64,000 bases of DNA, from assembly GCA_958009085.1 (NCBI GenBank), contig OY253682.1:1-64000 (forward strand), given 5' to 3'. Position numbers and translations under genes: made by a program. How positions within the stretch are numbered: position 1 is the first letter of the stretch; each line of letters begins with the position of its first letter. Positions 9,099 through 46,830 of this stretch are shown here, piece by piece. This DNA comes from Protoeuglena noctilucae. Taxonomy: Eukaryota. Under the pieces are notes generated by a model. It was not told the origin of the DNA, did no database searches, and saw only the letters and a list, made by a program, of their open reading frames with translations.

Positions 9099-11164
9099 CT
9101 AGGTGCGGACGGCCTCGAGCAGCCTCGAGAAGTAGAAGGACGTGGCTGTCATCTCGCGCTTGGTCACACGGAAGCCCGCCTTGGCCAGGGCGCGCTCCAC
9201 GTCCTCCTCGGCGTGCAGGTACGCGCGGGTGGCCTTGGAGGGGCCGGGGAAGAGCTCGCCGACGCGCTTGAGGAACGAGTAGTAGGGCGTCTGGGAGCGG
9301 GGAGGGGATGGCCGGGCTGGGCAGGGGTAGCAAGGGATGGGAGGGGCCCGGGGGGCTGACAAGGCAGCAGCTGCATTTGCCGCATCCCACTGTCCCACCT
9401 TGGGCGCGAAGGAGATGACGAGGCGCTTGTCGGCCAGCGACGCCAGGTGCGAGATCATCGCGTCCGCCTTGTCCTGGGGGTAGTGGATCATCACGTCCAG
9501 GCACGCCACCGTGTGGTACTTGCCTGCGGGGACAGCGGGGGAGGGGCGCGTCGTAGAGCCGCGCACCGATCTCGCCTCTGCCCCAGCAGCCAGCAGCCTC
9601 CCCAGTCACGCACCGGTGACCGACTCGAGGTCCTTGGCCTCAAAAACCGGCTCCTGCTCCGGCTTGGAGCCCCCCTCGGAGACCGCCACCTGGTACCGGC
9701 GCCGCGCCTCGTCCGCCATCTTCTGCGAGATGTCCGACGCCGACACGGCCGCGCCGCGCAGGGCCAGGGGCACCGTCAGCGACCCGGTCCCGCATCCGCA
9801 GTCGGCCACGGACAGCCCCTTGACGCCGCCCTCCTCGTCCAGCCACCGCAGGACCTTGTCCACCGTCTGCGGGGGTGGGGCCGGCCGCGCACGGGTGAGG
9901 GCCCGCCCAGGCGATGCACGCAGACCTGGGGCGATCCACCACGCTCGTCAGCGTCACCTGTGCATGGCCCTGGCGGATGTCCAGCTGCACTTTGTTGACC
10001 TCGTCCGTCTCCCCGTAGATCTTGTCCCAGCGCTTGAACCCCTCGTCCTCGAAGTAGCTCTTCACAGCCTTGAGCTCATCACCGCCCACCTGCTGCATCT
10101 GCGCCTCCCGCCTGCGAGGGGTGCACACGGGCATGCAGAGGATGAGGCCAGAAAACGACACGATACCCCATTTTTGCTGCACTCGGTGCCCGGATGCCAC
10201 GCATCGGCCCATCGCAGGCCTCCCCTCCTGCCCACCTCTTCTGCGGGTCGGTTGCCACCAGGAGCCCACCCACCCCCGCAGCCCCGAGAAGCGTCACGAG
10301 GGCGAAGGCCTTGTTGCCGCCGTCGGAGGACGAGGGCTGGCTGTTGATGGGCACCCGCGCAGGCCGCGAGTAGGAGACGTCAGCGGCCGGCGACGCGGGC
10401 TCCTCCAGCCGCAGCGTGGGGGCAGCGGGGACGGCCCTGGAGGGCGCGGGGGGCGCGGGGGCCACGACGGGCGCGCTGCGGGTGCGGATGGGCGGAGCGC
10501 ATGGGCGTCGCGGCGAGAGCAAGCCTCATGCAGCGGCGCGCTCGAAGCCCCTGCGCCGCACACCTCGCGCGGGTCGTGGGCTCCTCGGTCACAGGCTCCG
10601 ACAGCAGCTTCCCGTGCGGAATGTACTGCGGGCACCGACATCGCGGCGCTGGTGGAGCGGGGGACACGGGCCAATCGCGCGGGCCCCGACGGCGGACATG
10701 CCCGTGGCGCTGAGGCGCACGGGGCGCGAGCGCAATGCATGCGGCAGCCACCCCACGTTTATGTAACACATGGCCGTCGAAATCGCTTTGCGTGGGCGCT
10801 GAAAGCCCCGGTTAAGCTTGAAATCCTCGGCGAGCCAGAGGAAGCGATTGCGCGGGCCGCGCTGGCGTCTGCCGGGTGTCATGTGCGCGCTGCGCTTTAA
10901 CATTTCGCTCCGGGCCAGGCGGGCGCGGGGCCAACCTGCCCGGCGCCGCATCGGGGGTGGATATCTGAGCGACCCTCGGGCACCCACCTGCGCGTGCGCA
11001 GGCTCCGCGGAGGACAGAAGCAGCGCGATGGCTGCAGCTGAGGTCGCGATGCTGGCGGGGACGCGGTCATCGCGGGCAGCGGGGGTCGCGGCGCGGACCG
11101 CGACCGCCCGACTCGGGGGGGCGGGGCGCCCCAGGGCGAACGCAGACGAGGCGAGGGCGGGCAT
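9099..11164 (-). CDS. CHLM: Magnesium-protoporphyrin IX O-methyltransferase (7 inferred exons)
   Basis: YFEDEGFKRWDKIYGETDEVNKVQLDIRQGH, SAM motif VADCGCGTG, CLDVMIHYP, GELFPGPSKATRAYLH and FYFSRLLEA. N-terminal plastid transit peptide MPALASSAF...VAVRA. Confidence 0.95.
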
Positions 11165-16135: not shown

Positions 16136-17834
16136 TCAAAGGTCGTCGTAGTAGTCCGCCGGGAGCTGGAAGTCCTTCCCGTCCCAGGCCGGCACGGTGC
16201 TGAAGGGCTTGATGTCGCCGCTGATGGGCGTCAGTCCCGCCTTGCCCCGCGTGAGCTGGCCCACGAAGTCACCAACGATCTTCGCGTCCAGCGCCCCGTA
16301 GAAAACCGAGTACGCCTTCTTGCCCGGCGCAATGCCGAGGACGCCCGCCCCCTCCATGTTCATCTGGCTCTCGACGGCACTGGGGCGGAGGGGCAACGCA
16401 CACGGTCGCATGCAGCCACATGCACACTCCCCCAGCCCCGCGTCCCGCCCCTGGCCACGCACCTGTGATCGCCCGCCTGTGCCCAGAAGTAGGCGATGTC
16501 CCAGGCGACGAAGCGCTTGGCGACCTCGCCGAGGCTCTCCAGGGCCATGTTGCGCGCCATTGCGGACGAGTTGTAGATCTGCGGCAGGAAGGCCACCACG
16601 CACAGCAGGCGCGGGCTGTTGCCGGCCCCCTCCCCCAGGCACTCCCTGGCAAAGACGTCCTGGCTGGTGATCTCGTGGACCTTGGGCGGCAGGATGTAGT
16701 CGGCGGCCTGCGTCAGGACCCACTCCGTCATGGCCGAGGCCGACCGCTCCCCCTTGTACTCCTTGGGGCGGTCCTTGTTCTTCAGGAAGAGCTTGAGCGT
16801 CGGGAAGCCCTGGATGCCCTGGTCCCCGCAGACTGCAGGGGTAAGGGAGCAGGGTCACGTCGAGTCTCGCATGACGGCTGCCGGGCCAGGTTTATGCAAA
16901 GCAGACCCTCTCCGCAATGCATCCCCGCACCTGATTTGTTGGCCTCGCAGTCGACGGCCGCCACCTTGACGCGGCCCCCCACGCCCCTGGCCGTCATCTC
17001 GTAGTCGCTCTTCAGGTTCTTGCAGTGCGGGCACCACGGGGCGTAGAACTCCACGAAGTAGGGCTCGTCCGACTCGAGCATGTCCTCGAAGCCACGCTCG
17101 TCCAGGTTGACGACGCCGGAGGAGGAGGGGTAGAAGTCTGTGGGGGCAGAGAAGCCATGGCACATGTACAAAGGCAGCCTGTCGCCCGTTCCACGCCCTC
17201 GTCCGCACCCTGTCCCTCACCCGTGTCCCCGCTGCCGCCACCGCCGGCGCTCCCGCCCGCCCCCGACCCGCCCGACGACCCCTGCGCCTTGGCCCCGATC
17301 CGGGCCAGGGCAGCCGACTTGGCCTTCCCCATCGTCCAGTCGATGATGGCTGACGCCGTGCGCTCCCCGCTGTACCCCGCCAACCGCAGGCGCCCCTAAC
17401 TGCGGCCATGGCAAGGGCGCTGTTGTCACCCCCGCACGGTGCCAAGCACCCCGAGCTCGTCCCGTCTCCATGTCTCGCCTGTCCACGAAGTAGAATTTGA
17501 TCGTGGGGAACCCCTGCACCCCGGCGTCGGCCGCAACGGCCTTGTGCTTGTCGGCATCCACGGCAGCGACGCCCACGACGCCCCGCAGCGCCGTCGCCAC
17601 CTTATCATACTCGGGCGCCAGGGCCTTGCAGTGCCCGCACCAGGGCGCGTAAAACTCGACCAGCCACATGCGGCCCTCGTCGTCCTTGCCCACCGTCGAC
17701 CGAAACTCCTTCTCGCTCATGACGCGCACGTCCGACGACGAGCTGTACAGAGCGGCGCATCCGTGCGGCATCGCCGATAGCAGCAGGGCCAGGGCCGCTG
17801 CCAGCACGCCGAGGATCCGCATCGTGCAAGCCAT
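16136..17834 (-). CDS. Protein disulfide isomerase, P5/PDIA6 (a-a-b) type
   Basis: Signal peptide, two thioredoxin domains ([11 protein letters not shown] and [11 protein letters not shown]) each followed by GFPT, a P5-like C-terminal domain ending WDGKD, and an ER-retention-like C-terminus YDDL. Confidence 0.92.
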
Positions 17835-18359
17835 GGCACGAGATCCAGCCAGGGGCGCGGCGATGGACGCGCAGGGGACGCAGGTCCTGCTGCTCCTGGC
17901 CAAAGCGCCGCTGAGCTTTTGACAGATGAGAGCGCGGCGGGATTTGATGCGCCCGATGCCCGAAACTCGGCTGGCTTCTAGATACACACGCAACAGCAAG
18001 CAAGGCGGGACGGCAATGCCGCCAAGTCCTGAGGTCGTGTTGCGGAGGTAGTCGCACGCAAGTGCCACGCATGTGCTGTCGCCTATCAGCTCGTCTTCGG
18101 GGGGGCATCGCCAGCGACGTCAGACGCCAGCCCCCTGTGCCCGACGACCGCGCGATGCTTCACCCTTTGTGGCTCGTGCGCAGTCTCATTGGTACCTGAC
18201 AACTAGCTGTGGCAATCAAGCTGCTGATCCACGCTGCTAGCGCATTTTTGCAAAGGTAATTCCTTATGACCATGTGTTGCGCACGCTGTTGACCCAGGCG
18301 TGACCCGCGTCGCATTCACCTGACTCACGAGACAAGCATAGACTAGTTGGCGAGGCAAG

Positions 18360-21300
18360 ATGAGCTTGTTTCAGACCAAGCGCTGGTGGGGCTTCAATGT
18401 GGAGGGGGAGGACGAGCTGGACCAGGATTGCCTGATTCATGGCGACCTGAGCAACACGGGACAGCTTCAAGTGTCGATGGGCACCTTCAACGGGCGGTTG
18501 ATGGTCTTCAAGCCCGCCGCGGGGGACTATCAGGTGCTGGCATGCAACTGTCCCCGCGACCGCGCCCCTCTGCACCATCCCGGCCCGCCCCGCCTGACGT
18601 TGACGCCTGATTTCATATTTGAACCGTGCAAGGCATGAGCGGAGCACCCACGTGCCCATGCGGCCCCGGAACCCACCCCATTTCCGCACGTTGCCTTTGC
18701 AGCCCGACCACCTCCTCATTGAGCAGAACCTCGGCGCCCCGGTGCTCGGGATGCGCGTCGGTCATTTTCTCGCTGCGGGTGTGAACAGCATCGCGGTGCT
18801 GCACCCCTCCTGCCTCGCCTACTACGAGCTGGCCACGCAGGCGGGCGCCTCGTCCCTCATCAAGGCCCACGAGCACGGCCTCGACCACACGGCAGCGTCG
18901 CTAGGTGAGGGCGCGCGCAGCAAAGGCTGCCGGCTTGCACGGAAGGGCCGCCAGACCCCACGGACGCCTCCCAGCCTATCCATGCGGTGAGCGCATTGAT
19001 GCAGGACTCCCCGACCCCTCATGAAACGCGCTCCCCGCAGAGTCGGGGTTCTTCGGCGGCGAGGCGGGCGTGGAGAAGGTGGTGGTTCAGACGATGGACG
19101 GCCAGCTGGTGTTCTTCCAGGGCAAGCGCCGCCTCTTCCACCGCTACCTCAAGTCCTTCCTGGTCCCCGGCCCCCTGCGGTACCTGCCCCCATTGGACGC
19201 CTTCGCCACGGCCTCCTCGGCCTTCTCCGTCGAGCTCTACACCTACCAGGGCCTGGGCGAGGCCACGTCGGGGGAGTCCAAGGGGGCCAGGGACGCAGAG
19301 GCACAGGGGGCGGCCGCGCCTGAGCAGGGGCAGGGGCAGGCGGGCACGCGGGGGAAGGACGTGGCGCCGCGGTGGGCGTGGACGGCGGGGGAGGGCATCG
19401 TGGCCATCAAGGTGGGGGAGGGGCAGGCGGGTGGTGTCGCTGTCAGCCAAGGCGTGGGGTGGGCCGTCCTGCCAAAGGGGCAGGCAGGCGGTGTCGCCGT
19501 GTTGGCCATCCTGCAAATGGCGTTGACGCACGAGTCCCTTGTTGCTCTCTCGTATCTCCGCTGCCCCCCCTCTCTCCCCCGCAGTGGGCACCGGCGGTGG
19601 CTTCGGCCGCGGACCGCGACGACGGGGGCGTGGCGGACGCGATTGTGCTGGGGGAGCGTCACCTGTTCGTGCTGACGTCGACGGGCCAGTGCCGCACGCA
19701 GATCAAGCTGGACTACCACCCGACCGCGCTGGCCGTGGTGCAGACGCCCGCCCCCATCACGGGCGTCAACTACCAGGTCCTGGTCGCCACCCACACGGGC
19801 AGCCTCATGGTCTACCGGGGATCGCGGCTGGTCTGGGGGGCCAAGTCGGACATGGTCCCCGTGGCGCTCTCCACAGGCGCCTTTGGGGGCACGGACGGCA
19901 TGATCCTGGCCGCGGACGACCGGGGGCGGCTGGCGGTGCTGTACATGGGCACCGACCCGCCCCTCAACGTGGTGCAGGTGGTGGAGAGCAAGGACCTGGA
20001 CTTCGAGGCCATGGACCGGGAGCACCAGGAGCTCCTGGCGCAGATCCGCGACCACACCGCGGGGGAGGGGCGGGGGGCGGTGGCCGAGCGGCTGCTCCTC
20101 CGCACCCACGTGCCCGTGGCGTGCGACGCCGAGGACCGGCACATGCACCTCAGCGATCCCCTCGGCGGCGGCGGGAGGGAGGGGCGCGGGGCCGAGCCGC
20201 GCACCGTGACAGTGACGGTTCACGTGTCGTACGAAGGGCGGGCGCCCGTGCGGGACGTGGCGGTGCGGGTGGCGTGCCCGCCCACCGTGGCCTGCTCGCC
20301 CACGGAGGAGCGCATCGCGGAGATGCGCCCCGGCCGCGGCACCCCCGTCACGCTGCGCCTGCGCTTCACGCACACGGGCGCCGCCGTGCCCCCCACCAGC
20401 GCCGTGACGGTGTCGGCCACCTACGAGACGAGCAAGGGCGAGCCCCGCGCGGTGTTCGCGTCCTTCCGCCTCCCCCTGGCGCTCTTCGCGGAGCTGGTCC
20501 CTCCCATCAAGGAGTCGGCGTACAAGCTGGTCCTGGACACGAACCGGGCGCCCCCGCAGCTGACGGCGCTGTTCGACGACATGGTGGCGCAGAGCGCGAG
20601 CCTCACGTCCACGGCCAGCGCCAACGTGCTCAGCGTGCGGTACGCGTGCGGGGCGGACGCGACGGTCGTGGTGTCGCGCACGGGGGGGCGCTTCCGGGTG
20701 CAGTCGGACCGCTTCCACGCCATGTGGCTGCTGACGGAGGAGCTCTGCCTGCGACTGCACGCGCTGTTCCGGGGGGCGGGGGCTGCCGAGGGGGAGGAGC
20801 CCTTCCGCATCGACTTCCAGGAGCCGCTGCCCCTGGGGGACCTCTTTGAGCTCATGGACCAGCACTTGGAGGTGAGGGGGGAAAGGGAGAGAGGCATGCG
20901 CAGGTGCAGCACACACTGTCCCCCATCCCCACCCACACCCCCGGCGGGCAACCGGCATAGTATGCGCTCTCATCCCCACCACCCACCCGCAGGCCCGCCT
21001 GGCCCAGTCCCAGCTGTTGCAGCAGTTGGAGCGCCGCGCCACGCAGTTCCGCGCCGTGCAGAAGCGGCTGCTGGTGCGCTTCAAGGACCGCAACCCCGAG
21101 CCCCTCAAGCACCTGGACGACCTGCTGCACTCGACGTACCGGCACCTGGTGGAGCTGGGGAAGCGGGCGCAGGAGCTGACGGACGCCATACGCGCCAGGC
21201 GGTGGGAGATGGGGGCGGCCCTGCGGCTGATTGCGCTGCTGGCGCGGCTGCAGCACCGCCTGGGGGACGCGGAGGGGGAGGCGCTCGAGGCGTTCATCAG

Positions 21301-21717
21301 CCCCGAGGCGTTGGATGCCAGGGAGACGAGCTGGGAGCAGGTGAGGGGGGTGGCAAAAGTGAGGGAGGGAAAGAGGGAGACGATCTGGGAGCAGGTGAGG
21401 GGGTGGTGGGGAGGGGAAGAGGGAGACGAGGTGGGAGCAGATGGGAGGGGAAAGGGGGAATCCACGGGTTGTCACGCCGCACAGCCACCACATCATGCCT
21501 CAGTGTCGCGTGCACGCCCACCTCTGTGCGTCCTCGTCACCCCGCACCGCAGGTGACCCAGGCGACGATGAAGTGGGCGCTGTCCAAGCAGGAGGGGGGC
21601 GCCGCGCTCAGCAGCGGTGTGCTGCAGGCGGTGGAGGACACGGCGGAGCTCAAATCCCTCGTCTCCGCATTCATCGAGAAGGTGGGAGGGGGGGCGACGT
21701 TCCTCAAGGAACTGTGA
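18360..21717 (+). CDS. BBS9: Bardet-Biedl syndrome 9 / PTHB1 BBSome subunit
   Basis: N-terminus MSLFQTKRWW...DQDCL, then VQTMDGQLVFF, VLGERHLFVL, YMGTDPP, RFRVQSD and QFRAVQKRLLVRFKDRNPEPL, all typical of PTHB1. Confidence 0.95.
21321..21450 (+). repeat. Three tandem copies of the BBS9 exon-end/5' splice site
   Basis: gggagacgagctgggagcag|gtgagggg at 21321, gggagacgatctgggagcaggtgagggg at 21375 and gggagacgaggtgggagcagatggg at 21421. Confidence 0.9.
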
Positions 21718-22772: not shown

Positions 22773-23075
22773 CACGCTCCTGCGCCGATGCCCTCCTCCG
22801 CCCCGGCGTTGGGCCCACAAGCAATGCGGGAATCTAGCGGCGGACAAGCGCCTCGGCCGTCCGCGTTCAGGACAAGAAATAACCCGCAGTCAGGCTGTGC
22901 TGCACACACAGGGTCGGAAACATCGCCGAGGCCGCCCGCCTTGACCCCCCCGCGCGCGATTTCGTCTCACAATGATAACATCGCGAGGCACTGCGCGTGC
23001 GAGATCGTTGCGTGTAGAGACTCGGGCGTTTGGCTTTGGGTGGAAAGGTGTCAAGTGGTGTTCTTGTTCTCGGCA

Positions 23076-26000
23076 ATGGAGGCCCGGGGGATCCTCTCCG
23101 CGGCTGCCCGCGTCGGAGGACTGCAGGCGAGTGCCGCGCGTGGCCGTGAATCCGTGAGATATGCGCCGAGTGCGCGGGATGTCCTGCGTAAACGTGACGC
23201 CTTGTCGCTGCCAGTTCTTCCTCGCCCCGCGGCGACGGGGCTGGGCGGGGTGTCAGGCCAACGCCGGTATCGATGTTACCGAGCATGGGCATCACAGGCT
23301 CGTCATCCGCGCGGCCATCTCTCACCTCGATACGCCACCGTCCGCAGGCCGTGGGCACGCTCTTTGCCGATGGCCTCGCCTCTGCCGCTGTGCCGGCCCT
23401 GCTCCGCCTGTGCCGCGGGGGCGCCCTGTTGCGGCTCTCCCCTCGCGCCGTGCCCATTCCCGGCGCCTCCCTGCGCGGTCACTCGGCCATCCCTGCCGAG
23501 CGCCCCGCCCAGCCAGAGCCGGACCATGCGGGCCAGAGGTGCGTGGCAGCTGGGAGGCGGAGTAGCGAGAGCGGGCGTCGGCTTGGCTGTCATTTTCCCC
23601 CGCCTGAGCATGGGGATGAGGGTGGGTATTGGGATATGGCGGTGAGGGTTTTGATGGCACTGAGAGGGTGAGGGTGAGGATGAGTAAGGGTGACCTCCTT
23701 GCTCCCCCCCCCCCCCGCAGGGAGTCCGCGGGTGAGAAGATGCTGCGTGAGCTGAAGCAGCAGGGAGTGAAGCCCCTCATGCCCTGGGACGCGGGGCTGG
23801 GCCGTGAGGAGGCGTCGCGTCTGCTGGGGGACTTCCTGGGGGTGGACCCCGTCTCCCCCCTGCGCCCGGGGGAGGTGCTGGTGATGTCCCGGGACCAGAT
23901 GGAGGGTCTGCTGCGCAAGGTGCACGTGGATCGCGACGACCGCCTGCAGCGGGCGCTGTTCGTGCACGCCGACTCCGTCACGGATCGATTCTTCGGCAAC
24001 GAGATCGCCTTCCGCGGCATCGTGGAGTTCTCGAATGTCTGCGACTGCGACTGCTACTACTGCGGCATCCGAAAGCACCAGCAGGTGCACCGGTACACCA
24101 TGCCGAGGGACGAGGTGGTGGAGTGCGCCAAGTGGGCCTATGCGAACGGCATCCACACCATCATGCTGCAGTCGGGGGAACTCAACAACCAGAAGAGGCG
24201 AGGCGGGGCGAGGGGCAGTGGTTGGGTGCATGTTGAGTGCTCTGTGCTATATGTGCACCCTGGTTGGGTGTGACGACAAGCATGTCACACGGCCCCTTCC
24301 CTGCAGGTACGACTACCTCGCTCACATCGTGTCGCGCATTCGGGAGGAGACGGTGGCGATGGACGTGGCCAAGCGGGGCGGCGTGGCACCTCCGAGCACC
24401 GACGACCTCGGCATCGTGGTGGCGCTGTCGGCGGGGGAGATGCCGCAGGACGTCATGCAGGTGGGTGACATGGGGTATAGGGTGTAGGGCACCGGCACTG
24501 GCACTGCCACGCGCGTCGTGAAGAGCTGATTACGCTCCTGCTTCCATGCGTGCTGTACCTGCCCCTCCCTCACCCCTCGCCATCATCCCTGCCCCCACCC
24601 TCTCCTTCCCCCAGCGCATGTGGGACGCGGGTGCTCGCCGCTACCTCATCCGCATCGAGACGAGCAACCCCGACCTGTTCGCCAAGATGCACCCCCCCGA
24701 ATCCTCCTGGCACGCGCGTGCGGCCGCCATCCACTCCCTGCGAGAGATGGGCTTCCAGGTCGGCACGGGCGTCATGGTGGGGGTGCCTGGGCAGACACTG
24801 GCGGACATGGCGGGGGACGTGGAGTTCTTTCGAACCGTGGAGGCGGACATGCTGGGCATGGGGCCTTACATCATCGACGAGGGGACACTGATGGCCGCTA
24901 CCTGGCACGCGACCGTTGCCAGCGCCCCCGGCTTCGACAAGAAGAAACACATGGACGAGATGGTGCTGCAGACGATGCGGATGAACGCCCTGGCCCGCAT
25001 CAACTTGGGCAACGTCAACATCGCCGCCACCACGGCCCTGCAGGCCATCGACCCGATGGGGCGCGAGGTGGCGCTGAGCAGAGGGGCCAACATCCTCATG
25101 CCCATCCTCACTCCCACCAAGTACCGAGAAGACTACCAGCTGTACGAGGGCAAGCCGTGCATCACCGACTCGGCCGAGGAGTGCCGGCGGTGCTTGAATG
25201 CCCGGGTGTCGATGGTGGGCAAGCGGCTGCTGCCGGCCGCCAGGCTGGACCCGCCCCACCACAAGGACCCCATCAGCTGGCCGGGGGACGCGGCGGGGAC
25301 GCGGCACCTGCGCACGCGCGCGAGGGGGATGCGCACATCTGCGGTAGCCGTGCAGAGTGCTGTGCCTGCGCCGAGGGAGGGGGACGGGGACGGCGAGGGG
25401 GGCGGTGGCAAGGCGGTGGGCCCGGTGAAGGGGTCGGACGTCCCCCGCGTGAACGTGGGTGTGTTTGGGTCGATGAACGCGGGCAAGTCCACGCTGATGA
25501 ATCTGATCACACGACAGGAGACGTCGATCGTGGACGCCAAGGCAGGGACGACTGCCGACACCAAGGTGGCGCTGATGGAGCTGCACGCCCTGGGGCCGGC
25601 CAAGCTCTTCGACACCGCAGGCATCGACGGTGAGGGGGACTGACCCAACAGGGGTGCAGCTGACCTGGTCTGTGTAGTGGCGTGTCTGTGTGGTGGGGTG
25701 CAGTGTCGGACACTCTCATGTCCCTGCCTTGCTCCTCATGTCTCGCAGAGGATGGCGTGCTCGGGGACAAGAAGCGTCGCAAGGCATTTGCGGCTCTCAA
25801 GGAGTGCGACATGGCGTGCGTGGTGGTGGACCCCTCGCGGCTGGCGCGACTGGCGGACATCGCCCAGGGCCTGGCGTGGGAGCGCACAGTCATGGAGGAG
25901 GCGGCGAGGCATGGGGTGGCGCCGGTGCTGGTGTTCAATGTGCGGAGGGGGGCGGTGGCAGACGACGGTGAGAGAGGGTGGGACAGCGCGTGGAACAGCG

Positions 26001-27661
26001 CATGGCTGCTTGCTCACCTCCCTCGCCGCACCTGTCTTCGCTCACCCCGCATCTACCACCTCCCCCGCACCCGTGCTTCCACCCGCAGAGCTGCAGTCCG
26101 CCATCCGCCGCGCCCACGCCTTCCTCACCGCATCGCTTCCCTCCCCCGACGCCGTGGGCGTCAACATGAGGGCCGTCACGCCCGGTGCCACCCCCGCTGT
26201 GACGTGGCTGGCCGTGGATTTGAATGACCCCACGGGGACGCCGCGTGCGGCCTTGGTGGAGGCGCTGGAGAAGATCGGCACATCCATGCGGCCCTTCGTG
26301 CCCAGGCGAGCGAGGGACCCTGGCGCATGCGCGGCCAGTCGCGATGCATGCACGGTACCCTTGCGTGCCAAGTCTCTCCTGCCCCGCCAGCAATGTCCAC
26401 TCATGCGTTATATGAACACCTTCCCAGGAGTCTCCCCGACCGCTACCTCTCCCCCGACGCCATGGTGTTCCTCAACATCCCCATGGACGACGAGACCCCC
26501 AGCATGAGGCTCCTGCGACCCCAGGCGCTGCTGCAAGAAGAGGCCATACGGCACTGGGCCCAGACGCTCGCGTACCGGTGAGTGCCGGGGCTTGCATGCA
26601 GGACAGTCGTGGACAGCACGAAACCAGACACACTTCAGTCATGTCATCCCTGCATCCGTCACGCCCTCTCGCAGAGTCGACGTGACATGCATTACCCACC
26701 CTGCGCACATCCCCCACAGCATGACGCTGCCAGCCACACACCATTGTCCCTCATCACCTCCCCCCCACCACATCCCTGCCAGCCACACACCCTTCCCCTC
26801 CTCGCCTCCCTCCCAGCATGACCCTGGCAGCCATACACCCTTGCCATTCTCGCCTCCCCCCCCAGGATGGACTTGGCCGCCGCCCGCAGCGGTGACCCTG
26901 CGAAGGTCGCCGCCGAGCGCCGCCGCTTCCTCCGCGCCCTGGACCCCCTCCTTCGCCACCCCGGGCCCTGCATTCTGGTAACCGACTCCCAGGCCATGGA
27001 CATCGTGCACCCCTGGACTATGAACGAGAGCGGGCAGCCACTGGTGGACATCACGACGTTCTCCATCGCCATGATGCACCGGCAGAGCGGGGGCCAGCTG
27101 TCACTGTTTGCGGATGGTCTGCGGGCGTACCAGGGCCTGCGTGGCCGCGACGCCCGGGTGCTGGTGGCGGAGGCGTGCAACCACAACCGCATCACCGACA
27201 CGTGCAACGACATCGGCATGGTGCAGCTGCCGCAGCAGATAAACAGACACTGCTCGCGGGCCACGGCCGTCGACCACGCCTTCGGGAGGGAGTTCCCGGA
27301 CATGGACGCAGGTGAGAGGGGGGAGTGGGAGTGGTGGGGCATGAGGTGACTGGTATGGTGAGGGGCAGTGGCTGGCGGATGGTGCTACTCTGCAGCTCAG
27401 CCACTCTGTCGCATGTACCCTCTCCTGCATCATGCGTCATCCATTCCCCTCCCCTCCCCCACACCCCCAGGTCTTGGCAAGTACGACCTCGTCCTGCACT
27501 GCGGTGCGTGCATGATCGACCACCAGAAGGTGCGGGCGAGGCTGTCGGACCTGAAAGAGGCTCACGTCCCAGTAACCAACTACGGCCTGCTGCTGGCGTA
27601 CGCGCACCACGGGGAGGGGGCGCTGAAACGGGTACTGGCGCCGTGGGGGGTCAAAGTCTGA
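23076..27661 (+). CDS. HYDEF: [FeFe]-hydrogenase maturase HydE-HydF fusion
   Basis: HydE part: radical-SAM CxxxCxxC (RGIVEFSNVCDCDCYYCGIR), YLIRIETSN, GANILMP and YQLYEGKPCx7CxxC. HydF part: GTPase GSMNAGKS, GTTAD and DTAG, with FeS ligands EACNH...HCGACM. Both lie in one spliced frame. Confidence 0.96.
26711..26880 (+). repeat. About 50-bp tandem repeat x3 in a HYDEF intron, spanning the 3' splice site
   Basis: Units of the form cagcatgac(g/c)ctg(c/g)cagcca(c/t)acacc...ctcgcctccc. Confidence 0.75.
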
Positions 27662-28048: not shown

Positions 28049-30155
28049 TCACCTCCCCGCTCGCCTTCTCACGACGTCCACGATGCGGTCGGCCATGCGG
28101 TCGGGGGTCAGCGTGGGGGACCAGGGGGCGAGCTCGCCGGGAGTAATGAAGAGAACTGGGGGGGGGGGGGGGGGGGGGGGGGGGCGATGTGGGTGAGAGT
28201 CAGGCAGCGGAATGGGTGGCGGAGCGAGCAAGCAGGGCGGATGTGGGTAGCAGAGAGGTGCAGTTGGCAGTAGCAGAGTGCGGCAGCGGGGCGGGTAGCA
28301 GAGCAGGGAAGCAGGACACTGGAGTGTGTATTAAGCCATAAGCCATTGCGTCACTCACCGAGGCTCCCCCCCGCGTCGCTGGCGGCCAGTCCCGGCGCCG
28401 TGGCGGGGAAGCTGGGGGTGGCCGTGACGACCAGCTGCAAAGGGGGTTGGCCCCCGGGGAGGGCGACGGAGCAGCGGGCGACGGTAGACACGCCGCAGCC
28501 TGGGATGCAAAGGGCATGGGTGAGAGGCATGGGTGGTGGGGAGCGAGGGGTGCATGGATTGGCAGCGGTGAGCGACAAGGGTGGTTGTTGGACAGCATGT
28601 GCATGTTAGTACTAAGCTCATCATAGCACTTCTTATAGTACTAAGCTCGTCTCACGTGGCCAGAGGTCCGGGTCCGTCTGCAGCTGGGCGCGCTTGGCCA
28701 GGGCGTCGAAGAGGGGGCCGCACCGCAGGGCAGCCCCGATCTGGGTGCGCACGAACGCCTGGAAGGAGGCGGCGACGGCGTCGCGGGCGTGCTCCGTCAG
28801 GCACGTGCCCTCTGGCATGGGGGGGGCCTGGGGGTGGGCAGGGGTGGAGCGTCGGTGGGGGTGTGGGAGAGAGGGGATGGGTGAGAGAAGAGTGGTGGAT
28901 GAAGAGGGAGTGACAGGGAGAACAAGGAATTAAGCAAGGCGTCAGGATTCGAACCCTTTACCTTGAAATCGTTGAGGATGGCGCGCAGTGGCGGGGGGCA
29001 TGAGGCGGGGAGCGTGAGGGCGCATGGCACGGGCCCCTCGCAGTGGCCGGCAGCATTGAGGGCGAAGGTGGCGGTGACCTGAATGGCCTCTGCCCATGGG
29101 GGCACTCTGGAGGGCGAGGAAAGAGAGGGGGTTAGGGGAGATGGGGAGATGGGAGGGGAGGGCGAGGGACTGATGACGGGGTGAGGGAGTGACGGGGCGG
29201 GGGGGTTGATGCGGACAGGGGGCAAGGGACAGGGACAAGAGAGCTACATAAGGTCCATCAACGCATCGACGCTATGCCATGACCATGCATCAGATGGCGG
29301 CCATGCTTCCATCACGTGCCAATCCGCATGTGTCGGTCACCATCGCATGCAGTCACCTGTAGTCCGGTGCCACTCCCCAGGTGCCCGGGGGTCCCGAGGG
29401 GTCCGGGGACGTCAGCGCGGCGGCGGCGGGGCCGGTGGGGACGGGGCGGGCGTGGAATGCGAGCTCACGGAGGGCGGGGGAGGCGAAGGGGGCAGAGACC
29501 AGCACCACCCGCGACGCACCGCGGCTCTCCACTGCAATGACACAGACGCAGACACAGGTATAGCATCGGTAGATGCACATAGATGTGGTGTCATTGACTG
29601 TCACAGGCGGGTGAGTGCGGTGGCGCTGGGCGCAGTGACACCTGACACGGCCGCCCCCCTCACGCCCCCCAGTGCCGACGCCTCGAACTGCACCCGGGGG
29701 CAGGGCACGCCGGCGAGCTGCTGCGTCGCGACCCCGCGCAGTGCGGCGACGAGGGCCGCGACGAGCCGCGCGAGGCTCCTGCGGTCTCTCACATCCCATT
29801 GGTCGAGCTGCGTGGGGATGGTGGCATCCACAGCAGCCGGGTCGAACTCCGGAGGGTCCAGGACGACCTCGGGGGGCACCCAGGGACGCGCGCCGTCAAA
29901 GATGAAGTGCCACGTCAGCGAACCGGCGCCGTGGGGCACCTCGAGCGCAAAGCGGTCCGCGTACCTGCGTGTGAAAGGCACAGCACGGTGGGTGCGGGGG
30001 CGATGGAGCGCCTCGCATGCGGCAGCTTGCAGGACCACTCACATTTGGTGGAGCGCGCCGCATTGCGGGTTCTTGATGCCGTCGAATCCCTCATCCACGA
30101 GCGCCTTGATCAGGGGCTTGAGGAAGGGCTCCCACACGAGGTTGCCCGGCCCCAT
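28049..30155 (-). CDS. BABAM2: BRE / BRCC45 (BABAM2), BRISC/BRCA1-A complex subunit
   Basis: DRFALEVPHGAGSLTWHFIFDGARPWVPPEVVL...WDVRDRRSL...RVQFE and C-terminal PWSPTLTPDRMADRI match the BRE UEV pattern as recalled from family knowledge. Confidence 0.8.
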
Positions 30156-32377: not shown

Positions 32378-34894
32378 TCACCGCCCCTTGAACTCCATCC
32401 TCCTCGCCCGCCCCTTCTGCCGCTGCGCCATCTTCGCAGCCTTGGCCTTCCCGCCCCTCTCCCGCCGCTCCTCCATCACCTCTTTGCGTGCCGCACCCCG
32501 CTGCCCACGCCCACGCAGACGCACCGACTCCTCCCGACGCTTGGCCTGCGTCGCCTCCGATGGCCTGAGGGGGGCAGTGGGGGTACAAATGTTGATGAGT
32601 CGATGCACGGGGTTATATATTGGATGCATAGAGTCATCAATCAATGCACAGAGTTATCGGTCCATAGTATTCCTGTGCAACAGAACAGTCCCCCCCACAG
32701 CAAGGGCCGATGCGCCATACACACACAGCAGCTATACCCATCCTCCTCGCCTCTGTCCCGGCGGCAGGACGTTCTTGTCCGCGCTGAGCTCATCCAGTGG
32801 CTCCCCCCGCTGCAGCGCCCATTCAATGCGCGCCGCCAGCACCCGGTCACGCTTGGCCACCAGAGACGTCACACGCCCGGGGGCGCCGGCGCGAGCGGTG
32901 CGGCCGGTGCGGTGCAGGTAGTCGACGGCGGTGAGCGGGAAGTCGAAATTGACCACCAAGTCGACGCGACCGGGGACGTCCAGTCCACGCGCGGCCAGGT
33001 CTGAGCACACCATGACCGGTGGCCGCCCCTGCCCCTGTCCCTGCCCCTGTGCATGCGCCCCCGCGAATGCCTCGATGGCCTCCCTCCTGGCATCCCTGGG
33101 CATCTCTCCATGGTAGCACACGGTGGGTATGCCCCTCTCACGCAGGTGATGCTCGGCCGCACGCACGGCCGCCTGCGTGTTGCCAAACACCATGGCGCGC
33201 TCCCCGTCGCGCAGGGCGGTGCTGAGGGCGTCCTCCAGGACGTCCAGCTTGTCGCGGCCGGGGGGTATGGTGACGAAGGAGTGCTGGGAGCCAGCCACGC
33301 CCCTGGGGGGGAGGGAGACGGGGGTGGGAGTGACGATGATCCGTCATAGAGAAAGTGGCATGAGGGAAGGTGGCGAGATGCGCTGCGGTGACTGTTACAG
33401 TCGTATACAGTGCAAAGTGCAGAGAGGCTCACGGTGGGGTGAGGCAATCCCAGCAAAGGACGCGGCACGGCTCTCTCGATAAGCAGCTTGCGATTGACCG
33501 ATCCCACACAACCACACCACCATATGCACATCCATGATCGTCTCGCCTGTGGAATGTGTCGGTGGCGATGCGCTCCGCTTTGGGCAGGTGGTCCAGCACG
33601 AGCTTCTGCACCTTGCGCGACAGCGTGGCACACGCCAGCACCGCATCGGCGGGAGACGGCTTGCCCTTGACCGCTGCCACCACCTCCGCCACCTCTGGGC
33701 CGAAGCCGCGGTCGAACATCGTGTCTGCCTCGTCCAGTACCAAAAAGCGCACGTCACCCACATACACGTGCCCGGCCTCCATGTGCTCGCGGAGGGACGC
33801 GGGGGTGGCCACCAAGACATCCAGGGGGCGCTCCAACTCCAGGCGCTGGGGGGGAGGGGATGGGTGGTGGGTGGGATGGGGGATGATGATAAGTAAGCGA
33901 GGGGTGTGTGGTGGATGAAATGGGGGGTGATGAGCGAGGGGTGTTTGGTGGACGTGAGGGGCGAAGTTAAGCTAGGAAGAGAGGTATCCGAAGCACTGCA
34001 CTGCCGGCCGGGGCATGTATTACGAACAGTCCAGCAAAGGCGTCAACCCAGTGCCGCACCCCACACCCCTCTCGCCTGGTCTCGCTTGGTGCGCCCGGCG
34101 TTGACCAGCCCCGCGCGGAACTTGGCCACGTGCGACAGGGCCTTGCACACCCGGAATATCTGATCCGTGAGCTCCCTGGTGGGTCCCAGCACCACCGCGC
34201 GGGGACGCTTGGGGCGGCCCATGAAGGCCGCGCCCCCCGGGGTGGCCTCTGCTTCCAATTCCTTCAGTCGCTGCACGACGGGGAGGAGGTAGCCGAGGGT
34301 CTTGCCGGAGCCTGCGGGGGCAAAGAAGGGGGGACACAGTTGACATGCGTGCGGTCTTGGAGAGGGTTTGAAGAGAGGTTGTTGTAACATGGATATGATA
34401 TGGGAGCGAGGACGCGAGAGCAGGAAAGGCTGCAAGGACAGTGCAGGTGCGTATGTCGTGAGGGTGATGGCCCAGGGGACTCGACTCCACTCACCCGTGT
34501 GGGACGCGAGGATCCAGTCGCCCCCCGCGCGGATCTTGCGGAACGAAAGGGCTTGAATCTCCGTGGGAACCGTAATGCCCATCTCCCGCACCGCGTCCTG
34601 AAGCGCGAGGCTAAGGCCCAGGGCGCCGAAGCCACCCGCGGCGGCCGCAGACGTGGAAGGGGCGTCGGGGCTGGCCTCCACGGCGCGCACGCGCACCGAC
34701 ATGCGAGGCGGGAGCACCGGGAGGCCCTTACGAATGCGACGCCCCGGAAACGGCGACGGGGCGTCCCGCCGCGACGGTCCCGCGCGCAGCGGGGCGGCTG
34801 CCGTGCGCGCAGGCATCGCTGCGGCCGACCCCGTCCTCCCGCGGCTTGCGGACGCCCTCACGGACAGCGGGCGGCGAGAGAAGGTTTCGTACAT
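32378..34894 (-). CDS. Plastid DEAD-box RNA helicase (RH39/NARA12-like)
   Basis: Q motif PTEIQ, SHTGSGKT, GPTREL, LDEADTMFDRGF, CAT, ARGLD and HRTGRTAR. Transit-like N-terminus and basic C-terminal tail. Confidence 0.92.
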
Positions 34895-35506: not shown

Positions 35507-37642
35507 ATGAGGACTGCACGCTTTTCACGCTTGGCTTTGGGCAATGGAGGGCCGCGCTTGGGCGCGGGGGCGCCTCGTGAAAGGTGCATTTACGCGCGAT
35601 CGCTGCGCACTATGGAGGAGAAGCCATCGGCATCTTCTCCGGGTCAGACGGTCGTCGAGGAGCGCGCGGCCGCGGGGGCCACTACCAGCCCTGTGTCCTC
35701 CACCCCTCCCACCGCCGCGCCGACGCGTCTCTTCTCGAACCTGAACGCCACCACGCTTCAGCACGAGCCAGGTTCCTTCCTCGGGGCCACCGCTCTCGTC
35801 GCGGGCACAACGGTGGGCGCCGGGATCCTCGCCCTGCCCTCCGGTGCGTGTGCAAACCTGCCTGCTCTGCCAGGGAGCGGCACTGCTGTAAGAAGGCGCA
35901 TTGTCATGTACGCGTCACTCAACGCCAACGCTCTCCCTGCCCGCAGTGGCCGCTTCCTCAGGATTCGTCCCCAGCTCCGCGGCCCTGGTCACGTGTTGCT
36001 TTGCCAGCATCGCCACGGGTCTCCTCATCGCAGAGGTCTGCCTCGCCACCATGGTGAGCAGAGTGACAATGAACAGACTCACTCCTGCACCGCAGCTACC
36101 CTATAACTCATTAAATTGACCTCTCTTCTCACCCCCCTCTTCTCACCCCCGTCATGCAGTGCGAGTTGGGCAGCGGTGGCGTCGGCTTGCAGTCTGCCGT
36201 GTCCCGCACCCTGGGCCCCACTGGCACTGCGGCCTTCTCCTCTGCTTACCTCTTCCTGCACTACTGTTTGCTCGTCGCCTACATCAGCAAGGGAGGGGAG
36301 ATCCTGACAGATGCGGGGGTGCCGCTGGGAGAGGCGGGTGCGGCGCTGGTGTATGCGGTCGCCATCGGGGCGCTGTGCTACAAGGGCAGTCCCCGCACAG
36401 TCGACGCAGTGAATGGGGCGCTGGTGGTGGGGACGCTCGCGGCGTTCGCGGGGCTGCTGGCCCTGACGCTGCCGGGGATCGATCCTAAATCTCTAACAAT
36501 GGGGGGCGACTGGGGCCGCGTGCCGGACGCCCTGCCGACCATCGCGCTGGCGTACGTGTATCACAACGTGGTGCCCGTGCTGGCCACGTCGCTGGAGGGG
36601 GACCGAAACAAGATACGCGGGGCCATCGGTGAGAGATGATGTGTTGTGTTATGTTGGGAAATGTTGTGCTGACATGTGAAAAGAGGGTAGAGTCGACGTC
36701 ACTGCTCTCTGCCCCTCTCGTCAGTCACGGGTGCACCTGCACCCGTCACTCCCACTGCCACCCCCGCCGCCTCACTCCTCATCTCCCTGCCACCCTCCCC
36801 CACCCCCCCAGTCCTCGGCTCCCTGCTCCCCCTGGCCATGTTCCTCCTCTGGGACGCAGCCGTGCTCGGCACACCCATAGACTTCACCTCAGCATCGGCA
36901 CTGGACCCATCGGACCCCGCCTCGGCCATCGCGTCCCGGTCACCCCTGGCGTCTTCCCTCGTCGCTTCTTTCTCCTTCCTCGCACTCACCACGTCGTTCA
37001 TCGGATTCGTCATCGGCCTGTCCGACTTCCTCGCCAATGCGCTGGGGAAGCCCAGCGGCAGGCCAGCCCCGATGCCCTACCTCCTCACGCTGGTGAGGCC
37101 AGGCATGCTCGTGGTTACACAAATGCATGTGTCTAGCGCACGTGCTCCTTTACCATCACCATCACCATCGCCATCACCATCACCATCACCTCTCCGATCC
37201 CACCGTCACACGCCTGCCTCACGCATACCCGCTCCCTCACTGTCACTGCCCTCACCTTCACCACCCCATTCCTCCCCACATGCCCTGAACAGGCTTTCCT
37301 TACATACCATAGGTATGTCATAAACATAATCCATGTCCCCGTTCTCCCCAGGCCCCCCCCTTCGTCCTCTCTTTGGCTCTCAAGGACGTCTTCCTCACCG
37401 CCCTCGACCGCGCCGGCACTTACGGGGTACTCACCCTGTTCGGACTGCTGCCACCCGCCATGGCGTGGCAGCAGCGATATGGATCGCAGAATGCGAATAC
37501 TCCAAACATGGACAGCAATGATGCCCAGGCAGTAACTGCCCCATTGGTGCCGGGTGGGCGACCGGTGTTGCTGGCACTGGGGGCGGGGTCGGCGGGGATC
37601 ATCGCCAGGGAAGCGGCGCAGGCAACGGGACTGCTGCAGTGA
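35507..37642 (+). CDS. Aromatic amino acid permease, TyrP/HAAAP (Trp_Tyr_perm) family
   Basis: GATALVAGTTVGAGILALP, YLFLHYCLLVAYI, YVYHNVVP and LALTTSFIGF, with many TM helices. Confidence 0.9.
37153..37190 (+). repeat. Intronic (CCATCA)n microsatellite
   Basis: ccatcaccatcaccatcgccatcaccatcaccatcacc lies in an intron of the permease gene. Confidence 0.85.

Positions 37643-44939: not shown

Positions 44940-46830
<1,891 letters not shown>

Follow-up and report, generated by a model that had tools for sequence, protein, structure and literature searches.

The HydEF locus of Protoeuglena noctilucae raises the question whether the fused product of this gene stays in one piece after its import into an organelle, and in which organelle it serves the maturation of [FeFe]-hydrogenase. 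Bacteria and most protists have HydE and HydF as two separate proteins, and we know of no explanation for their fusion in algae. The HydEF protein of Chlamydomonas reinhardtii is plastidial. It has been speculated that the fusion economises import (PMC3897525). The site of hydrogenase maturation in green algae other than the C. reinhardtii group is the subject of a 2026 study in BMC Biol (PMC12924338), whose main text gives in-silico predictions, based on a consensus of predictors, that place HydEF and HydG in the mitochondrion for most core chlorophytes and in the plastid for the C. reinhardtii group alone. The idea of a mitochondrial maturation has hence been published before as a prediction made in silico for core chlorophytes; the species set of that study excludes the alga considered here, and a word search of its main text found no mention of a linker, of cleavage or of a polyprotein. 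Our literature search (Additional file 1 of PMC12924338 aside) found no report of HydEF processing. The initial annotation of the locus had envisaged a polyprotein that is cut into HydE and HydF in the mitochondrion, an interpretation that is partly supported by the analysis described here.

The window, i.e., the stretch of 64,000 nucleotides that we analysed, carries at positions 23076-27661 (+) a HydE-HydF fusion of 10 exons, the spliced model of which runs without stops over 1036 amino acids. That this gene encodes HydEF, as had been proposed, is borne out by matches to both NCBIfam profiles, TIGR03956 (HydE) and TIGR03918 (HydF). TIGR03956 yielded E-values of 5.7e-23 on exon 3 and of 9.6e-50 on exon 5, scores that lie under the whole-protein cut-off because the exons were scanned singly. 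Residues 2-205 of exon 5 correspond to positions 146-333 of the 340 positions of this profile, while residues 277-338 of the same exon correspond to positions 6-67 of the 392 positions of TIGR03918; exon 9 represents positions 227-339 of the latter profile. HydE and HydF are joined within one exon (24615-25629) without an intervening stop. The HydE radical-SAM part (23721-25229 (+); exons 3 and 4 with the first part of exon 5, as delimited by TIGR03956, tblastn and the gene model) contains introns at 24198-24306 (GC-AG) and 24461-24614, and its translation displays the sequence CDCDCYYC, the CX3CX2C motif of the radical-SAM domain. In the HydF part (25443-27661 (+); the last part of exon 5 together with exons 6-10, placed by TIGR03918 on exons 5 and 9 and by the model), the P-loop GSMNAGKS and the elements EACNHN and HCGAC (CxH...HCxxC) are present; the modelled stop codon occupies positions 27659-27661. 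Aligned at full length, the model shares 59% identity over 980 columns with a HydEF from the Pedinophyceae (P0001). A homologue search gave 54 matches (best identity 63%), which take in proteins from Volvox and Micractinium named "iron hydrogenase assembly protein"; the nearest named relative of the alga is a pedinophyte (59-63% identity). The same architecture is found in the C. reinhardtii HYDEF gene, reportedly described by Posewitz and co-workers in 2004, a single nuclear gene that likewise combines a HydE radical-SAM and a HydF GTPase part; the domains follow in the same order, and the CX3CX2C, P-loop and C-terminal CxH...HCxxC motifs are shared.

A spliced contig in a marine metatranscriptome attests to the expression of the gene. 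In this contig (run X7), positions 25628/9 and 25748/9 are connected across a gap with GT..AG ends, which confirms intron 5 (25630-25748 (+)), the sole splice supported by RNA. The contigs of a further metatranscriptome run (X1) are identical to the window, yet span introns 4, 6, and 8 (unspliced RNA or DNA); X1 is therefore uninformative on intron 1, whose 3' end is crossed unspliced by one of its contigs. A search of run X6 yielded no contigs, while X2 contains the entire stretch in identical form and may be the assembly from which it derives. Pfam scans detected neither HydA nor HydG in the window; they were applied to 381 ORF entries with a length of 100 amino acids or more, a number that includes eight re-scans and leaves out about 30 of the 403 ORFs, all of them within HydEF.

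The N-terminal peptide that had been proposed for the protein, MEARGILSAAARVGGLQ, was recovered in a six-frame search at 23076-23126 (+), where it forms exon 1 of the model and begins with the start codon chosen in the initial annotation. These first 17 residues hinge on a predicted GC-AG intron at 23127-23347 (+) (cag/GCGAGT ... CCGCAG/g; splice and cleavage points are marked by a slash) and are still a model. The AG/GCGAG donor of intron 1 recurs in two other introns of the gene, 3 and 7, both of which are required by the alignment with homologues, and this makes the proposed intron plausible. Exon 2 (23348-23538 (+); AVGTLF...PALLRLCRGGALLRL...SLRGHSAIPAERP...), placed by alignment, matches the N-terminal presequences of other chlorophyte HydEF proteins. 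In other core chlorophytes, the HydEF protein begins with a homologous presequence in which PALLR(R)L is followed by R-x-[FL]-[SH]-[ST], and it possesses the same linker motif as the protein of the window; the N-termini of relatives contain RRLST, RLLHT, RGFSS, or RSFSA. The corresponding segment in the window, RGHSA (23474-23488 (+)), is a candidate N-terminal processing site of the R-2 type (RG/HS), as judged from a by-eye match of SLRGH/SA with SMRGF/SA of the Tetradesmus HydEF, for which the table of PMC12924338 gives a TargetP2 mTP cleavage at RGF/SA (Pr 0.855). The peptides with which this N-terminus had been compared are all present in the window, namely a mitochondrial S18 presequence (...GLRGFST, 50489-50509) and a further one (61515-61568), and the plastid transit peptides of ChlM (...AVAVRA, 11090-11107 (-)) and of a DEAD-box helicase (...VRVRA, 34682-34696 (-)). 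The end of the HydEF presequence, RGHSA, has no V.A[ATC] and is not of the V-x-A type.

That this N-terminal model is wrong, so that a different first exon or start applies and the resemblance to presequences is in part an artefact, we regard as somewhat unlikely. In favor of such an error, exons 1 and 2 are without RNA coverage and without splice support among the contigs of X1 and X7, the latter supporting intron 5 only. Moreover, an alternative in-frame ATG at 23273-23275 (+) opens the sequence MLPSMGITGSSSARPSLTSIRHRPQ, which continues into AVGTLF..., and starts of the MLPS/MLPA kind also occur in the HydEF proteins of P0009 and, in the published table, of Leontynka and Tetradesmus. If translated from this codon, the protein would begin with MLPSMGITG..., an alternative N-terminus that lacks charged residues, is rich in Ser/Thr and has a more plastid-like appearance. 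Both candidate starts, however, keep exon 2 with the conserved PALLRL helix and RGHSA, the donor of intron 1 equals two others of the gene, and the result obtained for the linker is independent of the N-terminus. Further upstream, an ATG near position 22973 would open a uORF if transcribed, a feature that can be counted toward a different N-terminus.

The HydE-HydF linker of the window (25230-25442 (+); exon-5 residues 206-276, about 71 amino acids) lies outside both the HydE and the HydF profile. In the middle of this gap, exactly at 25299-25361 (+), we found the peptide TRHLRTRARGMRTSAVAVQSA quoted in the initial annotation, and its description as Arg-rich and acid-free is accurate for a stretch of 27 residues from GTR to PAPR that contains seven Arg and no Asp or Glu. 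An MPP-type motif (R at -2/-3, a bulky residue, and S/T/A) had been recognised here as R-x-hydrophobic-x-T-S-A. Such a motif is present at the junction in two copies (25302-25337), RHLRT (site 1, 25302-25316 (+)) and RGMRT (site 2, 25323-25337 (+), the copy originally noticed); both conform to a looser family pattern, which is derived from the data and is consequently circular as a test of the sites of the window itself, but the strict form R-x-[FYL]-[SA]-[ST] is absent from this linker. Site 1 is part of a G-T-R-x-[LFY] element, the GTR of which is invariant in all six aligned members of the clade to which the alga belongs and is followed by a hydrophobic residue. At the position of site 2, relatives carry RGFHS, RAFAT, RGLAT, or RGYAT, and the linker of the closest relative (P0176) reads GTRHFSA...PRGFHSSA.

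The a priori pattern R.[FYL][SA][ST] stems from the plant and yeast MPP literature. Among the 45 non-redundant HydEF linkers from outside the C. reinhardtii group (Reinhardtinia), 23 contain it; in 2000 composition-preserving shuffles, the mean was 0.9 and the maximum six, so that none equalled the figure for the actual linkers. The data-derived pattern R.[FYLMVW][HSAYRG][TS], which can be summarised as R-x-[FYLM]-x-[ST], is present in 42 of these 45 linkers (shuffle mean 3.4; again reached by 0 of 2000 shuffles), and the three misses are the near-variants HGFHT, RSFSN, and RASYAT. Conservation of the linker motif in relatives, named as a test in the initial annotation, is thereby found. An Arg residue stands at position -2 of 45 of the 102 aromatic residues in the linkers, with a background Arg frequency of 0.068, and in the folded domains, the density of the motif is about one tenth of that in the linkers of the same 43 proteins (0.17 versus 1.88 per 100 amino acids). 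Beyond the motif, the linkers are barely alignable across relatives; the motif itself persists in these otherwise unalignable segments across green algal classes and in Vitrella, and it is duplicated in many of them. In P0019, near-tandem R-[GA]-Y-A-T-S-S-S units provide three exact pattern matches, and 11 sequences of the Chlorellales type share an invariant G-x-H-[TS]. Judged by these comparisons, the R-x-[L/M]-R-T-type motif is a family-wide and, by all appearances, selectively retained feature of HydEF linkers. D'Adamo et al. (2014; PMC3897525) reported, as data not shown, that there is no conserved motif in the HydEF linker, and the conservation described here appears to be new.

We tentatively propose, at somewhat under an even chance, that HydEF is a composite precursor of [FeFe]-hydrogenase H-cluster maturation that is cut by a presequence peptidase after import. 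The linker would go back to the presequence that HydF had when it was encoded by a gene of its own, and its processing site would have been kept because it is still in use. Following import, the peptidase would remove the N-terminal presequence around RG/HSA and would also cut the sites in the linker to release separate HydE and HydF proteins, in the way in which Arg5,6 and Atp25 of yeast are split by MPP. With an Arg residue at -2 and a bulky residue at +1 of these sites, this enzyme would most likely be the mitochondrial MPP, and its cut may be followed by Icp55-type trimming. If the linker site is indeed processed, the fusion would be a delivery device through which one import event supplies two enzymes, and HydEF would bring an algal representative from anaerobic metabolism to the few precursors that are cut internally by presequence peptidase. 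For the expression of algal maturases, this would mean that HydE and HydF may naturally be active as separate proteins. The positions of the neo-N-termini and the responsible peptidase are directly measurable and would provide a test of where hydrogenases mature.

The compartment in question is most likely the mitochondrion, with dual targeting possible. We infer this from the type of the motif, from the homology of the N-terminus to presequences published as predicted mitochondrial, and from the replacement of the linker motif by a plastid-type region in the sole lineage with a plastidial HydEF. In the eight linkers of the Reinhardtinia type, the a priori motif occurs once, while V.A[ATC] is found in seven (a count reached by 97 of 2000 shuffles) versus seven of the 45 other linkers; this switch represents a single evolutionary event (n = 1). 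Linkers of the Chlamydomonas group are about 160-190 amino acids long and rich in His/Asp, and their terminal region, rich in Ala/Arg/Pro, contains SPLRP and V-x-A, whereas the linker of the window comprises about 61-71 amino acids, carries two R-x-[LM]-R-T sites and has no SPLRP. Likewise, the N-terminus of C. reinhardtii HYDEF is a predicted cTP (RVA/AH), while that of the window ends in RGHSA, so that neither a cTP ending in V-x-A nor a long SPLRP...V-x-A linker, the marks of a plastid-type HydEF, is seen in the window. A wider view of these data is more doubtful in our estimation: in green algae and chromerids alike, HydEF may be a polyprotein that enters the organelle in a single import event and is split into HydE and HydF by the presequence peptidase at conserved linker sites, the type of site having co-evolved with the compartment, and the H-cluster of the alga of the window may be made in the mitochondrion. 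An MPP-type R-x-[FYL]-[SH]-[ST] site would then accompany mitochondrial maturation, and it would have been rewritten into an SPP-type V-x-A site as the C. reinhardtii lineage moved its maturases to the plastid.

The H2 production of Chlorella and Scenedesmus depends on light, which implies that plastids contain active HydA and hence maturases. HydEF could be plastidial or dual-targeted, with its linker cut or its N-terminus processed by SPP or another stromal protease and with a motif that works in either organelle, a possibility that we consider unlikely. For 10 of the HydEF rows from outside Reinhardtinia in the table of PMC12924338, TargetP2 gives cTP in six, mTP in three and OTHER in one, while PredAlgo assigns eight of the 10 to M and DeepLoc 2.1 all 10 to the mitochondrion. 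The same study points out that the maturation of the plastid HydA-S would be unexplained if the maturases were solely mitochondrial (PMC12924338). A caveat to the mitochondrial reading that had been missed in the initial annotation comes from the linker itself, in which SAVAVQSAVPAPRE (25338-25379 (+)) resembles, by eye, the plastid-type cleavage region of ChlM; it is identical at eight of 15 positions to the transit-peptide end SRAVAVRAATPAARD of the ChlM protein of the window and includes the plastid-like AVAVQSA. The Ser/Thr-rich N-terminus that would result from the start at 23273 points in the same direction. Against a plastidial or dual-targeted HydEF stands the rarity of the motif in a plastid control, the N-termini of ChlM, where the pattern occurs in seven of 94 proteins (seven matches in 9595 residues). 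The motif was lost from the linkers of the only lineage with a plastidial HydEF save for one of eight, the N-terminal end in the window is RGHSA and not of the V-x-A type, and the motif is found in HydF of the plastid-less organisms Piromyces, Neocallimastix, and Stygiella, in addition to further HydF-only matches.

The uncleaved C. reinhardtii HydEF protein works in Escherichia coli, so that cleavage is dispensable for activity. Mature HydEF might thus be a single polypeptide whose linker motif is an uncut iMTS-L that aids the import of a long precursor (for instance by Tom70 binding) or is bound in some other way; we judge this to be decidedly unlikely. Import is reportedly enhanced by MTS-like sequences inside some precursors (PMC5881500), and conservation of a motif is by itself no proof of cleavage. 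What is conserved in HydEF, however, is the core of a cleavage site (R, a bulky residue two positions on, and S/T) and not a helix, and many linkers are Gly/Ser-rich around the motif. That many of them are rich in Gly/Ser ahead of the motif and not obviously amphipathic also counts against our preferred reading. As a proxy for iMTS-L character, the acidic fraction near 64 motifs of relatives is 0.020 versus 0.043 in whole linkers. In the available part of PMC8734313, the composite precursors examined all had an iMTS-L together with an MPP motif where the two parts meet, and the one tested was cut; a strong N-terminal presequence is required for internal cleavage. A word search of this text found no mention of hydrogenase or HydE.

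Our preferred reading of HydEF as a cleaved precursor has a close parallel in yeast proteins. Arg5,6 and Atp25, as far as they are covered in PMC8734313 and PMC5063612, resemble HydEF in that one precursor serves for two enzymes of one pathway. For Arg5,6, an internal MPP cut has been proven at RSY, where Arg occupies position -2 and an aromatic residue position +1 (PMC8734313). This junction (RSY or RGY) has the same form as the HydEF linker motif and, as proposed here for HydEF, goes back to a segment that resembles a presequence; Atp25 undergoes three cuts, and the window offers two candidate sites in the linker in addition to the N-terminal one. Cleavage has been demonstrated for the yeast proteins; for HydEF, it is suggested by the sequence.

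In anaerobic protists and fungi, stand-alone HydF proteins (hydrogenosomal or mitochondrial) are encoded by separate genes with no HydE upstream, and some of them display an N-terminal R-x-[FY]-[SY]-[ST] at the position that corresponds to the HydEF linker motif. It is present in nine of the 23 stand-alone protist HydF proteins, 20-71 amino acids ahead of the P-loop, and the last motif of HydEF linkers lies at a median of 42 amino acids before the P-loop. The initial annotation had offered as an alternative that the linker is a relic presequence of a formerly separate HydF gene; the position of the motif in stand-alone HydF favors this origin, while its conservation argues against a relic devoid of function. 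It is improbable that the motif is such a functionless relic, or a by-product of a low-complexity, GC-rich composition, even though stand-alone eukaryotic HydF has it ahead of the P-loop and D'Adamo et al. (2014; PMC3897525) described the Tetraselmis fusion as the 5' region of HYDF joined to HYDE without a conserved linker motif, since no composition-preserving shuffle attained the observed counts and the motif survives, often duplicated and at about ten times its density in folded domains, in linkers that can otherwise not be aligned. A Pelomyxa protein named "HydF, mitochondrial" carries the sequence NRGHSAS.

The gene at 23076–27661 (+) is an ordinary HydEF. Its 10-exon model, built from a tblastn search with the HydEF protein of a member of the Pedinophyceae (P0001) and from the splice sites read in the DNA, yields a translation product of 1036 amino acids without internal stops that is 59% identical to P0001 over 980 columns. 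The NCBIfam profile for HydE (TIGR03956) was placed on exons 3 and 5, and that for HydF (TIGR03918) on exons 5 and 9. Since exon 5 (24615–25629) encodes HydE up to exon residue 205 and HydF from exon residue 277 onward with no intervening stop, the fusion is genomic. The two parts are joined by a linker (25230–25442, + strand) of about 71 residues that lies outside both NCBIfam profiles. The surrounding sequence is nuclear DNA of a green alga (GC content about 64–74%); its ChlM exon shares up to 78% identity with the ChlM of green algae, and the best named relative of its HydEF is that of a pedinophyte (63% identity). A contig from metatranscriptome run X7 bridges 25628/9 and 25748/9 with GT..AG ends, and thereby confirms the splicing of intron 5 and the expression of the gene in the sea.

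To compare linkers, we took the stretch from the HydE C-terminal motif to the HydF P-loop from all matches, added those of an exhaustive profile-free search and dropped the near-duplicates P0006 and P0192. This left 53 linkers, eight of them of the type present in the Reinhardtinia group, the lineage of Chlamydomonas reinhardtii. Nearly every one of the other linkers contains at least one copy of R-[GSR]-[FYLMV]-[HSAR]-[TS] (e.g., RGLHT, RSYHT, RGYAT, RSFSS). The strict pattern R.[FYL][SA][ST], which stems a priori from the plant and yeast MPP literature, occurs in 23 of these 45 non-Reinhardtinia linkers, a number that none of 2000 shuffles reached (mean 0.9, maximum 6), and in one of the eight Reinhardtinia-type linkers. 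The comparison of linkers across algal HydEF proteins called for in the initial annotation found the motif kept, with the looser pattern R.[FYLMVW][HSAYRG][TS] in 42 of 45 linkers (shuffle mean 3.4, maximum 10; 0/2000 reaching 42) and in three of the eight Reinhardtinia-type ones, a pattern that was derived from these data and is therefore circular as a test. The three linkers that miss it carry HGFHT, RSFSN, and RASYAT. Arginine is found at position −2 of 45 of the 102 aromatic residues in the linkers (background Arg frequency 0.068), and motif density per 100 amino acids is 1.88 in the linkers vs. 0.17 in the folded domains of the same proteins (n = 43). Among 94 green-algal ChlM N-terminal regions (median 105 amino acids), used as a plastid control, the data-derived pattern was present in seven and the a priori pattern in three. 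With today's sampling, the statement of D'Adamo et al. (2014; PMC3897525) that the linkers share no conserved motif no longer holds.

In the clade of the window's protein, which comprises its closest relative P0176 (76% identity), P0002, P0023, P0001, and P0003, every linker keeps an unchanged G-T-R with a bulky residue after it, and downstream carries a second R-x-bulky-x-[TS]. The claim that the window's linker carries an MPP-typical motif stands in part: its sites RHLRT and RGMRT fit the looser pattern but not the strict one. In the linker of P0019, six or seven near-tandem R-[GA]-Y-A-T-S-S-S units with three exact pattern matches are present, the putative cleavage-type motif having been multiplied through repeat expansion. 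Chlorellales-type linkers (P0008, P0013, P0017, P0020, P0021, P0022, P0025) have in common a conserved block downstream of the arginine motif (C-x-x-C-G ... C-P-V-P ... F-x-A-A-A-K-x-N-G-P-A). It is missing from the window's protein and might form an additional, Cys-containing extension at the N-terminus of mature HydF.

The N-terminal presequences of HydEF proteins end in the same type of motif (RRLST, RLLHT, RGFSS, RSFSA). It also occurs in nine of 23 stand-alone HydF proteins of eukaryotes whose P-loop is preceded by 30 or more amino acids, those of Piromyces, Neocallimastix, and Stygiella included, at 20–71 amino acids upstream of the P-loop; the last motif of the HydEF linkers lies at a median of 42 amino acids before it. 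NRGHSAS, present in a Pelomyxa protein annotated as 'HydF, mitochondrial', has the same form as the N-terminal site of the window's HydEF. Given this shared motif and the similar P-loop distance, the linker is most readily interpreted as the end of a HydF presequence that the fusion took over, which was the alternative offered in the initial annotation, and the Tetraselmis gene structure described in PMC3897525 fits this origin. Four stand-alone HydF proteins, P0056, P0057, P0058 (Chrysophaeum), and P0059 (Aureoumbra), some of them pelagophyte, share 64–67% identity with the HydF part of the pedinophyte HydEF and are thus nearer to it than are most green-algal HydEFs, a likeness that may reflect a transfer of genes between green algae and ochrophytes or the fission of a fusion. 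The protein P0048 of the heterolobosean Willaertia magna, with a radical-SAM HydE-like domain and enoyl-CoA hydratase domains (PF04055 + PF00378 + PF16113), is a different HydE fusion.

A mitochondrial location of HydEF, as proposed in the initial annotation, is already in print as an in silico prediction (PMC12924338; BMC Biol 2026). In 13 HydEF rows of its Table S15, which stand among more HydEF occurrences in that paper, DeepLoc 2.1 calls all ten non-Reinhardtinia proteins mitochondrial and PredAlgo eight of them, while TargetP2 returns mTP for three, cTP for six and OTHER for one; the three Reinhardtinia proteins are plastidial (PMC12924338). Most informative is the Tetradesmus N-terminus (...PSLLRLSKVLAGCSMRGF|SA), for which mTP cleavage is called at RGF-SA (Pr 0.855; PMC12924338). 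By eye, this site resembles the window's ...PALLRL...GASLRGH|SA, and a MAFFT alignment of both window N-terminal models with nine stored HydEF N-termini has the same layout. The match and this layout place the window's HydEF, by its mitochondrial-type presequence, as a further member of the group predicted to be mitochondrial.

The peptides quoted in the initial annotation were all recovered in place. Its exon 1 needs a GC-AG intron (23127–23347), whose donor (cag|GCGAGT) is credible because the GC donors of introns 3 and 7, gag|GCGAGG and cag|GCGAGC, are built alike and are forced by alignment with homologs. Three of the nine introns of the model (23127–23347, 24198–24306, 26306–26427), two of them alignment-forced, hence have an AG|GCGAG donor, a share far above the roughly 1% usual for GC-AG introns in eukaryotes. 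Metatranscriptome contigs of run X1 pass unspliced through 23215–23532; they cover other introns as well, so that this passage is uninformative on intron 1. If translation began at the in-frame ATG at 23273 instead, the protein would open with MLPSMGITGSSSARPSLTSIRHRPQ and run on into the same exon-2 residues, and this start looks more plastid-like. Exon 2, common to both models, holds the PALLRLCRGGALLRL segment and ends in SLRGHSA. P0009 has an MLPS/MLPA start as well, as do the HydEF proteins of Leontynka and Tetradesmus in the published table (PMC12924338). Upstream, an ATG opens a 60-codon frame (22973–23157, +) that overlaps the 23076 start and, if transcribed, would serve as an upstream ORF. 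A 3-base AGA insertion at 27318 (intron 9), seen in one X1 RNA contig and a minority DNA contig of run X2, is probably a strain or allele polymorphism.

Seven of the eight Reinhardtinia-type linkers are named, including Volvox, Gonium, Edaphochlamys, Chlamydomonas incerta, C. schloesseri, and Tetrabaena; the eighth, P0045, was placed in the group on the basis of similarity. These linkers are about 160–190 amino acids long and His/Asp-rich, and SPLRP and V-x-A lie in the Ala/Arg/Pro-rich region at their end; seven of eight contain V.A[ATC] (reached by 97/2000 shuffles) vs. 7/45 elsewhere. For the N-termini of these proteins, cTPs with cleavage at RVA|AH are predicted (PMC12924338). The arginine motif is kept in Chlamydomonadales outside the Reinhardtinia group (Chlamydomonas sp. 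UWO 241, P0018), and the switch between linker types goes along with the published switch in predicted compartment. Because this switch happened only once in evolution and the statistical signal for V-x-A is weak, the contrast is consistent with the model of organellar processing proposed below, and no proof of it.

In yeast Arg5,6, MPP is experimentally proven to cut at an internal RSY, where R occupies −2 and an aromatic residue +1, and RGY is a second candidate; other composite precursors have MPP motifs and iMTS-Ls at their junctions (PMC8734313). HydEF does not figure in that set, and the paper mentions neither hydrogenase nor HydE. The HydEF linker motif shares the form of the RSY site, whereas HydEF cleavage is an inference. 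From its sequence, HydEF would fit among the composite organelle precursors tailored by a presequence peptidase. We give a slight edge to the view that such a peptidase cuts the linker in vivo, at the motif or beside it, and so releases separate HydE and HydF, and lean somewhat more firmly toward the mitochondrion, by itself or jointly with the plastid, as the compartment, and MPP as the enzyme; cleavage and compartment combined would be the best explanation, held tentatively and at a little under even chances. Several points count against it. The window's own sites match only the looser pattern, exon 1 is a model whose alternative, the 23273 start, looks more plastid-like, and the linker contains SAVAVQSAVPAPRE, identical at 8/15 positions to the end of the window's ChlM transit peptide, SRAVAVRAATPAARD. 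Chlorella and Scenedesmus produce H2 light-dependently, and uncleaved HydEF is active in E. coli. For relatives, TargetP2 often calls a cTP (PMC12924338). Neither a conserved processing-type linker motif nor a polyprotein reading was found in the literature searched, a scope to which one supplement of PMC12924338 and Sawyer et al. (2017) did not belong. The linker finding can be tested directly and touches on an open question.

HYDG adjoins HYDEF in C. reinhardtii; a Pfam scan of the neighbouring genes found no HydG adjacent to the window's HydEF. The scan identified a thioredoxin-domain protein (16800–18100, −), the BBSome subunit PTHB1/BBS9 (18600–21700, +), which suggests a flagellate stage, a BRE-like protein (29600–30000, −), a Trp/Tyr permease family protein (36100–37300, +), an NAD kinase (38600–38950, −), and a PfkB kinase (45250–46830, +). 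A run of about 36 G residues (28150–28185) lies inside an opposite-strand gene downstream of HydEF.
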